Part shown: one piece after another, positions 15,713 through 15,774 of the stretch
Layout of the letters: each line of letters begins with the position of its first letter
How positions within the stretch are numbered: position 1 is the first letter of the stretch
Assembly (NCBI RefSeq): GCF_056712565.1
Contig: NZ_CM160072.1
Reading direction: 5' to 3' (one strand)
Length of the DNA: 64,000 bases
The notes under the pieces: generated by a model
Database searches by the model: none
What the model saw: the letters and a program-made list of their open reading frames with translations, nothing else
Told to the model about the DNA's origin: nothing
Position numbers and translations under genes: made by a program

Positions 15713-15774
15713 ATTTTGCTTAATCCGGGATTAAGCAAAATATGCGGAAACAGCATTCCCTTGCGGGAATGCTG
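15713..15774 (-). terminator. Two tandem stem-loops between the sinI-like and ratA-like genes (putative intrinsic terminator / attenuator)
   Basis: ttgcttaatcc-g-ggattaagcaa (11-bp stem) and gcattccc-ttgc-gggaatgc (8-bp stem); on the minus strand the second is followed by tgtttccgcatatttt. Confidence 0.4.

Follow-up and report, generated by a model that had tools for sequence, protein, structure and literature searches.

The 120-nt spacer between sinI and the giant ratA-like gene, analysed here within a 64,000-nt stretch of DNA (the window), contains two adjacent hairpins, HP1 and HP2. Comparison of sequences indicates that they are a real, strongly conserved and unannotated cis-RNA element, which is specific to the sinI-ratA junction. 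HP1 would serve as a leaky, translation-sensitive terminator and HP2 as a processing or stability hairpin of the read-through RNA. We put the probability of this reading at about 0.55.

Locus and gene content

The DNA of the window belongs to E. coli of the B2/ExPEC type and carries sinH, sinI and ratA, the ila/CS54 genes, on the minus strand (Table 1). These genes are known as the ila cluster of UPEC, which is related to the CS54 island of Salmonella (PMC12928451; PMC4943183). A section of 701 nt around the hairpins has the same sequence in the type strain ATCC 11775 (100% identity) and is present in 938 of 5426 complete E. coli genomes, on the chromosome in every case. The spacer is exactly 120 nt long (15666-15785), as the original prediction stated, and lies between the sinI stop codon TAA (15786-15788) and the ATG of the ratA-like gene (15663-15665). 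Two strong stem-loops are present in it at the predicted place.

Table 1. Features of the sinH-sinI-ratA locus and of the sinI-ratA spacer, in window positions
Feature	Position	Strand	Basis
sinH/iatB, intimin-like inverse autotransporter, first gene of the cluster	16818..19025	-	ORF list and RefSeq annotation, ATCC 11775
sinI, SinI family autotransporter-associated protein, 325 aa	15786..16763	-	ORF, translation and RefSeq annotation of the identical ATCC 11775 locus
HP1, GC-rich stem-loop, coding strand AGCAGCAUUCCC-GCAA-GGGAAUGCUGUU	15749..15776	-	sequence, folding, conservation
Linker UUUCCGC (UUUUCCGC in most homologues)	15744..15750	-	sequence; alignment columns 39-46
HP2, perfect 16+1+16 palindrome	15711..15743	-	sequence, folding, alignment
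HP2 3' flank AUUGAU (GUUGAA in most homologues)	15705..15710	-	alignment, pair counts
Shine-Dalgarno sequence GGUGGAG of the ratA-like gene, 8 nt 5' of the ATG	15674..15680	-	sequence
Giant ratA-like gene ('adhesion domain-containing'), 2683 aa in ATCC 11775	7614..15665	-	ORFs and comparison with ATCC 11775

The spacer between sinH and sinI, 54 nt in length, has no hairpin, and the two genes are co-transcribed according to a review (PMC12525524). Expression of iatB/sinH is silenced by H-NS and activated by LeuO (PMC6714894), and it has been suggested that Rat-like proteins, the RatA-like giants, are substrates which the SinH inverse autotransporter secretes (PMC4943183). In Salmonella LT2 a binding site of the sigma-54 holoenzyme was found by ChIP-chip inside sinH (STM2517), outside the sinI-ratA spacer (PMC3844500). 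The hairpin element is unannotated in RefSeq, and the literature searched yielded neither a description of the sinI-ratA junction nor a mapping of transcripts or their ends across it.

Two differences from ATCC 11775 were seen in the flanking genes. The ratA-like gene has a 1-nt deletion near 10296, after which the frame ends at 10287, and is split in the window into ORFs 10287-15665 (1792 aa) and 7615-10170 (851 aa). This is either a real pseudogene of the window strain or a sequencing error. The sinH gene has a 27-bp in-frame length difference near 17777, where GGCAGCATTGTTTTTCGCCTGCCAGGA is tandemly duplicated.

Structure of the two hairpins

HP2 is formed by an inverted repeat of positions 15711-15726 and 15728-15743, which reads ATATTTTGCTTAATCC-G-GGATTAAGCAAAATAT on the plus strand and is the longest perfect inverted repeat with a short loop in the 64-kb window. 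The perfect palindrome of 11 bp that had been predicted is there, and it was understated, the repeat being perfect over 16+16 nt. As RNA, HP2 of the window has a stem of 15 bp and a loop of 3 nt, while the stem reaches about 20 bp in most homologues. HP1 was predicted as a GC-rich hairpin of 8 bp and is likewise longer; its perfect core has 10 pairs (15751-15760 with 15765-15774), and the minus-strand RNA forms 12 pairs closed by a GCAA tetraloop.

The folding-energy calculation proposed with the prediction places both hairpins far below shuffled controls. The sense RNA of HP1 has a folding energy of -20.6 kcal/mol (z = -6.4) and that of HP2 -15.3 kcal/mol (z = -5.4). The value for the whole spacer as sense RNA is -46.8 kcal/mol (z = -5.7). 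In each of the three cases none of 200 shuffled sequences was as stable. The patterns of HP1 and HP2 each occur once in the 64-kb window, against 0.00-0.01 expected by chance.

The linker between the two hairpins has two parts to play in the structure, providing the short U-run of HP1 and the 5' side of a helix at the base of HP2 (pairs 42-86, 43-85, 45-83 and 46-82 of the alignment). This basal helix consists of UUCCGC and the 3' flank of HP2, with a conserved G.U pair and a conserved C-U mismatch. In most homologues HP2 has 20 pairs, including one conserved G.U, and the one conserved C-U mismatch. The window version has its 15 perfect pairs and a weak basal helix, and is short in comparison with the approximately two helical turns (~20 bp) of RNase III substrates. 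At position 15710 the base of HP2 has a C-A mismatch in the window, and a C-G pair is restored by the allele of the majority. A 61-nt query matched 151 E. coli genomes at an identity of at least 99%, which is the type of the window, ATCC 11775 and UTI89, and another 778 at 95-99%; among the matches listed for the latter group the identity is 98.4%, corresponding to one mismatch. The G allele at 15710 in locus L003 and in related metagenome contigs suggests that this one mismatch is located at 15710.

Direct reading of the spacer for other sequence signals gave the following. HP2 or the conserved GTTGA was considered as a sigma-70 -35 box, and there is no -10 box at usable spacing in any lineage. 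For sigma-54 boxes (-12/-24) in HP2 or GTTGA, there is no GG 10 nt 5' of GC. Likeness to operator consensuses, compared for SlyA (TTAGCAAGCTAA), the PmrA direct repeat, GcvA, boxA and the RfaH ops site, is confined to single lineages. An anti-Shine-Dalgarno pairing, UCCGC with GUGGA, occurs in the minimum free energy fold of the window sequence, but the other loci form the basal helix of HP2 instead. The Shine-Dalgarno sequence of ratA itself is kept in homologues as GGUGGA or GCUGGAG. DsrA, whose sequence was matched in 5338 genomes of E. coli, has a central palindrome, CUUGCUUAAGCAAG, that shares 7+7 nt with the two arms of the core of HP2; about 0.2-1 such matches are expected across the known small RNAs, and the likeness is probably a coincidence. 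Comparison of the E. coli and Salmonella versions of the element with Rfam 15 gave only matches at the level of chance (E = 0.65-9; CRISPR-repeat and miRNA models).

Conservation and covariation

Homologues of SinI were collected, and an alignment of 21 of them was used to fetch 23 loci with one genome per species. A ratA-like gene follows sinI directly in nearly all of the 23 loci. The same two hairpins, in the same order, are found in Escherichia (several divergent ila types), Citrobacter, Pseudocitrobacter and Superficieibacter, where the SinI proteins are 40-68% identical to the protein of the window. Both are also present in Salmonella enterica and S. bongori, whose loci were fetched by way of their SinI proteins. 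One of the fetched loci (L003, JAIJJM010000381.1) is a 3.1-kb contig of a metagenome-assembled genome labelled 'Collinsella sp.'; it holds sinI-ratA of the E. coli type with 96-98% protein identity, and the label is probably due to a contaminant of binning.

The two-helix structure fits the alignment closely. Among 29 distinct sequences, 94.6% of the alignment cells are paired, against 38-49% when the partners are slid by 1-3 columns. Changes on both sides of the pair occur at 15 of the 31 pairs (87 cells), and none of 500 shuffles reached the observed values. When the analysis was repeated with the 18 rows obtained by protein homology, which involve no selection by pattern, 94.1% of the cells were paired and again 15 of 31 pairs were changed on both sides. 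RNAalifold independently predicts the same two helices together with the basal extension of HP2. A covariance model built from the alignment gives one strong match per locus in the sense direction (75-91 bits), with antisense echoes of about 30 bits. It also gives weak matches at the same position in Citrobacter sp. R56 and Leminorella, in which the second hairpin is kept with a different sequence.

The two hairpins differ in what is conserved. HP1 has a stem of 10-14 bp and a loop of 4 nt in 19 of 20 loci; 8 of its 11 pairs have changes on both sides, and it also has invariant C-G pairs beside the loop. In HP2 the core, UUUGCUUA and UAAGCAAA (8+8 nt), is nearly invariant between genera, while the top and the bottom of the stem covary freely. 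The core is exact in 19 of the 22 protein-homology loci with a ratA neighbour; in the metagenome rows its apparent invariance is inflated, as these were chosen by a pattern that contains the core. The halves of the core are separated by 9 nt in most loci, by 8 nt in a few and by 26 nt in E. albertii (L018, 5430-5470). In this last species the loop is 17 nt longer, and a compensatory change from G-C to A-U is found inside the core. The core is altered in a compensatory manner in Citrobacter sp. R56 as well. The invariance of the core may come partly from a stronger constraint at the middle of the helix.

Distribution

A search for the palindrome elsewhere in the genome had been suggested, and it found the element in 946 of 5426 E. 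coli genomes, each time at a single site, and nowhere but at the sinI-ratA junction. The covariance model found nothing in the 64-kb window beyond the match at the junction. Metagenomes were scanned with a pattern made of the HP2 core and its 3' flank. This gave 53 contigs, and in 47 of them a SinI or RatA coding sequence adjoins the match. The remaining six contigs are AT-rich, have no HP1, SinI or RatA, and look like chance matches; one of them has almost no ORFs. In the ORF-poor and AT-rich contigs L030/L055/L056 and L051, which have no link to sinI and are probably eukaryotic DNA with chance matches, the palindrome of the HP2 core extends outward to TCAAC...GTTGA. The same pattern has no match in viral contigs.

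At the ratA-ratB junction of Salmonella and at the end of S. bongori ratA there are palindromes of the GTTGGGT type, and the HP1/HP2 element is absent. This GTTGGGT...ACCCAAC set, which follows Salmonella ratA (L026, 16680-16840; L028, 17490-17640) and has several repeats in S. bongori, is unrelated to HP1 and HP2.

Insertions were found in the spacer of a few loci. In E. coli UPEC129 (L002) a Mu-like prophage with Mor, gp16 and Gam is located within HP1, at about window position 15773, and splits sinI from the ratA-like gene. In Escherichia sp. E1V33 (L008, 4552-4850) and in L078, HP1 is interrupted by a REP/BIME-like insert of some 175 nt, and HP2 is intact. In L025 (5344-5440) an insert of about 45 nt separates HP1 and HP2, and HP2 is again intact.

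The pairing strand

The two strands of HP2 are not equivalent in their capacity for pairing. In the alignment of HP2, G.U accounts for 86 cells when the sense strand is read and A.C for 6, and HP2 is paired to 93% when read as sense RNA against about 78% for an antisense RNA or a symmetric DNA site. This strand-biased occurrence of G.U, together with the long loop and the compensatory change in E. albertii, speaks for a hairpin in RNA transcribed from sinI into ratA rather than for a DNA operator bound by a dimeric protein. Since HP2 of the sense strand must be transcribed through HP1, this also suggests that HP1 is not a tight terminator.

HP1 as a candidate terminator

HP1 has the GC-rich stem of an intrinsic terminator (stem of 5-14 bp with a short loop) and lacks its U-tract (at least 5 U in 8). 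The tail reads UUUCCGCA in the window and corresponds to the linker allele of Table 1 in most homologues, so that there are only 3-4 U before CCGC. A scan of the window with a terminator consensus did not call HP1. A discriminant of the d'Aubenton-Carafa type, with a formula after d'Aubenton-Carafa 1990 and with ViennaRNA energies, is about 0 (0.1) for the window allele, 5-16 for most loci and negative for three. In L014 and L064/L065/L076 there is no U-run at all and the hairpin is nonetheless retained, which suggests that termination cannot be its sole role.

The position of HP1 in relation to the upstream gene is also of interest. The stem starts 7-13 nt after the sinI stop codon (median 9, 20 loci; 9-11 nt in the window). 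In a lambda tR2 reporter, termination fell from about 90% to less than 10% when the stop codon was moved from 28 to 5 bp upstream (Li et al. 2016, PMC4824070). Termination came back once translation was removed, and the authors concluded that 10-15 nt of free RNA are required between the ribosomal A site and the hairpin (PMC4824070). The short distance thus places HP1 within the reach of a terminating ribosome, and read-through is probably dependent on translation. HP1 may be regarded as a weak intrinsic terminator, that is, a leaky attenuator which would be less efficient when sinI is translated close behind the polymerase.

Proposed function

The element would be read on the minus (coding) strand within the sinH-sinI-ratA transcript. 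A ribosome finishing sinI close behind the polymerase would cover the 5' arm of HP1 and allow read-through, while uncoupled transcripts would end at HP1. In this manner the 8-kb ratA-like gene could be transcribed at a reduced level that depends on the translation of sinI. HP2 would be made only in the read-through RNA, at the start of the ratA leader, where it most likely acts post-transcriptionally. It could be a processing site for a double-strand-specific enzyme of the RNase III type, or a hairpin that protects an RNA end, and in either case the sinHI and ratA segments would differ in stability. The near-invariant core of HP2 might also bind a specific factor.

The original prediction had proposed transcriptional punctuation in the form of a terminator or processing site. 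This is retained in outline, as HP1 has the anatomy of a terminator, but HP1 is weak and HP2 would be made beyond it. A full uncoupling of the giant gene from sinH/sinI, which was also predicted, does not agree with the conservation of HP2 as sense RNA past HP1; the element would rather attenuate or process.

The locus is of practical interest. In ExPEC and in Salmonella the sinH-sinI-ratA genes are a locus for adhesins and colonisation, and work is under way on SinH as an antigen for vaccines (PMC9937491; PMC12525524). A conserved RNA at the junction between the translocator and its 8-kb putative substrate is an obvious control point for balancing both. It also offers a defined target of about 80 nt for mutagenesis and a natural test case for ribosome-proximity-dependent termination in a virulence operon.

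Alternative explanations

The two hairpins could together be an efficient composite terminator ('hairpin cluster') of the sinH-sinI operon, with ratA as a separate transcription unit. Groups of neighbouring hairpins that follow a stop codon have been suggested to act as units of termination (PMC8355165), HP1 is GC-rich, is followed by a U-run and is located near a stop codon, and the literature reports co-transcription only for sinH and sinI. However, the U-run of HP1 is short and missing in some lineages, and HP1 lies inside the distance from the stop codon at which ribosomes repress termination. There is no U-run 3' of HP2 and no terminator after it, while its conservation as sense RNA 3' of HP1 indicates that the polymerase passes HP1. 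A separate unit would also need a start. The spacer contains no promoter-like site, and only 33-55 nt, across loci, lie between HP2 and the ratA start codon, so that there is no room for a promoter of ratA. The adjacency of sinI and ratA and the spacer itself are, moreover, conserved between genera. We regard this explanation as unlikely, and prefer partial termination at HP1 followed by a role of HP2 in the read-through RNA.

For simple structural roles there is no obvious need for a near-invariant core of 8+8 nt in HP2. The core and the imperfect basal helix (UUCCGC/GUUGAA, with the fixed G.U and the C-U mismatch) could conceivably be an RNA operator for a protein or small RNA conserved in Enterobacteriaceae. 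The giant adhesin gene would be turned on by such a factor, for instance through a polymerase made resistant to termination over 8 kb or through a gated processing of ratA mRNA. The junction would then be a dedicated riboregulatory checkpoint for the substrates of the SinH two-partner inverse autotransporter. We consider this a rather speculative proposal with a small chance of being correct.

The same near-invariance could be explained by a double-stranded DNA operator, in which a dimeric regulator on the half-sites TTTGCTTA and TAAGCAAA controls ratA or acts as a roadblock. The original prediction had offered a binding site of this kind as its second choice. The exact 8-bp half-sites in 19 of 22 protein-homology loci with a ratA neighbour, their spacing of 9 nt in most loci and 8 nt in few, and a conservation of sequence beyond the needs of pairing are typical of a protein recognition site. 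However, the G.U wobbles maintain pairing on one strand only, the stem outside the half-sites covaries, which is not required of a DNA site, and Citrobacter sp. R56 and Leminorella keep the hairpin but not the sequence. In E. albertii there are 26 nt between the half-sites and a compensated pair within them. The centres of the half-sites are 17 bp apart, a spacing that places them on opposite faces of the DNA helix. Neither the spacer nor the sequence after it has a promoter-like site, and there is no regulator gene on the island. Thus neither a fixed spacing with conservation equal on both strands nor overlap with, or adjacency to, a promoter was found, as would be expected of an operator. 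A DNA site appears improbable, and a hairpin acting in the transcript is favoured.

It is very doubtful that the spacer is the gene of an independent small RNA or of a small peptide. The structure is stable, and the window sequence has an ORF of 16 codons that runs from an ATG in the 3' arm of HP1 to a TGA in the conserved UUGA. But a small RNA would have neither a promoter-like site in the spacer nor a terminator after HP2, and neither the E. coli nor the Salmonella version has a match in Rfam. The mini-ORF is not conserved, since an extra U in homologues shifts the frame and Salmonella has no ATG there.

That the palindrome is a functionless remnant or copy of a REP, BIME or MITE-like repeat, or the end of a mobile element, is scarcely credible, for although the spacer tolerates insertions (the REP/BIME-like ones, that in L025 and the Mu-like prophage of UPEC129), the element has no dispersed copies, being present at a single site in the window, in each of the loci and in all E. 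coli genomes carrying it, has no match in viral contigs, and covaries at one orthologous position between genera.

Comparison with known systems

The conserved junction, read as an attenuator followed by a leader hairpin, can be compared with several known systems. HP1 resembles the translation-sensitive terminators (PMC4824070) in that it starts 7-13 nt after the stop codon, within the zone blocked by the ribosome. The effect of the ribosome was demonstrated in the lambda tR2 reporter, whereas for HP1 it is suggested by distance alone.

The put sites of phage HK022 are cis-acting RNAs of two stem-loops that cause processive antitermination. The sinI-ratA element is similar in that a pair of neighbouring stem-loops, together about 75 nt, precedes a very long transcription unit. 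It differs from put in the terminator-like U-run of HP1, in showing no conserved bulges or unpaired bases, and in having no similarity of sequence to put and no match in viral contigs.

Intercistronic stabilisers, such as the REP sequences of malE-malF and the stem-loops of puf and pap, shield the upstream segment from 3' exonucleases and lead to unequal amounts of co-transcribed products. The presence of stable hairpins between cistrons is common to these systems and to sinI-ratA. In contrast to REP sequences, the present element is single-copy and specific to its locus, and in contrast to the stabilisers in general it joins a terminator-like hairpin to a second hairpin with a conserved sequence.

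In the rpsO-pnp operon of E. coli, a leaky intrinsic terminator is followed by a long leader hairpin that is cut by RNase III. Unlike this operon, sinI-ratA has no evident promoter between the hairpins and the downstream gene, and the role of RNase III is putative. HP2 is also shorter (15-20 bp), has a sequence-invariant core and shows no similarity of sequence. The general arrangement is alike in both: a partial terminator after the upstream gene and a long, stable stem-loop in the downstream leader, joined in one read-through transcript. The segments of the rpsO-pnp transcript are differentially expressed and differ in stability, and by analogy the same may be proposed for sinHI and ratA. 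The motif itself is new, being absent from Rfam and from annotation, but it is of a known kind, an attenuator combined with an intercistronic leader hairpin.
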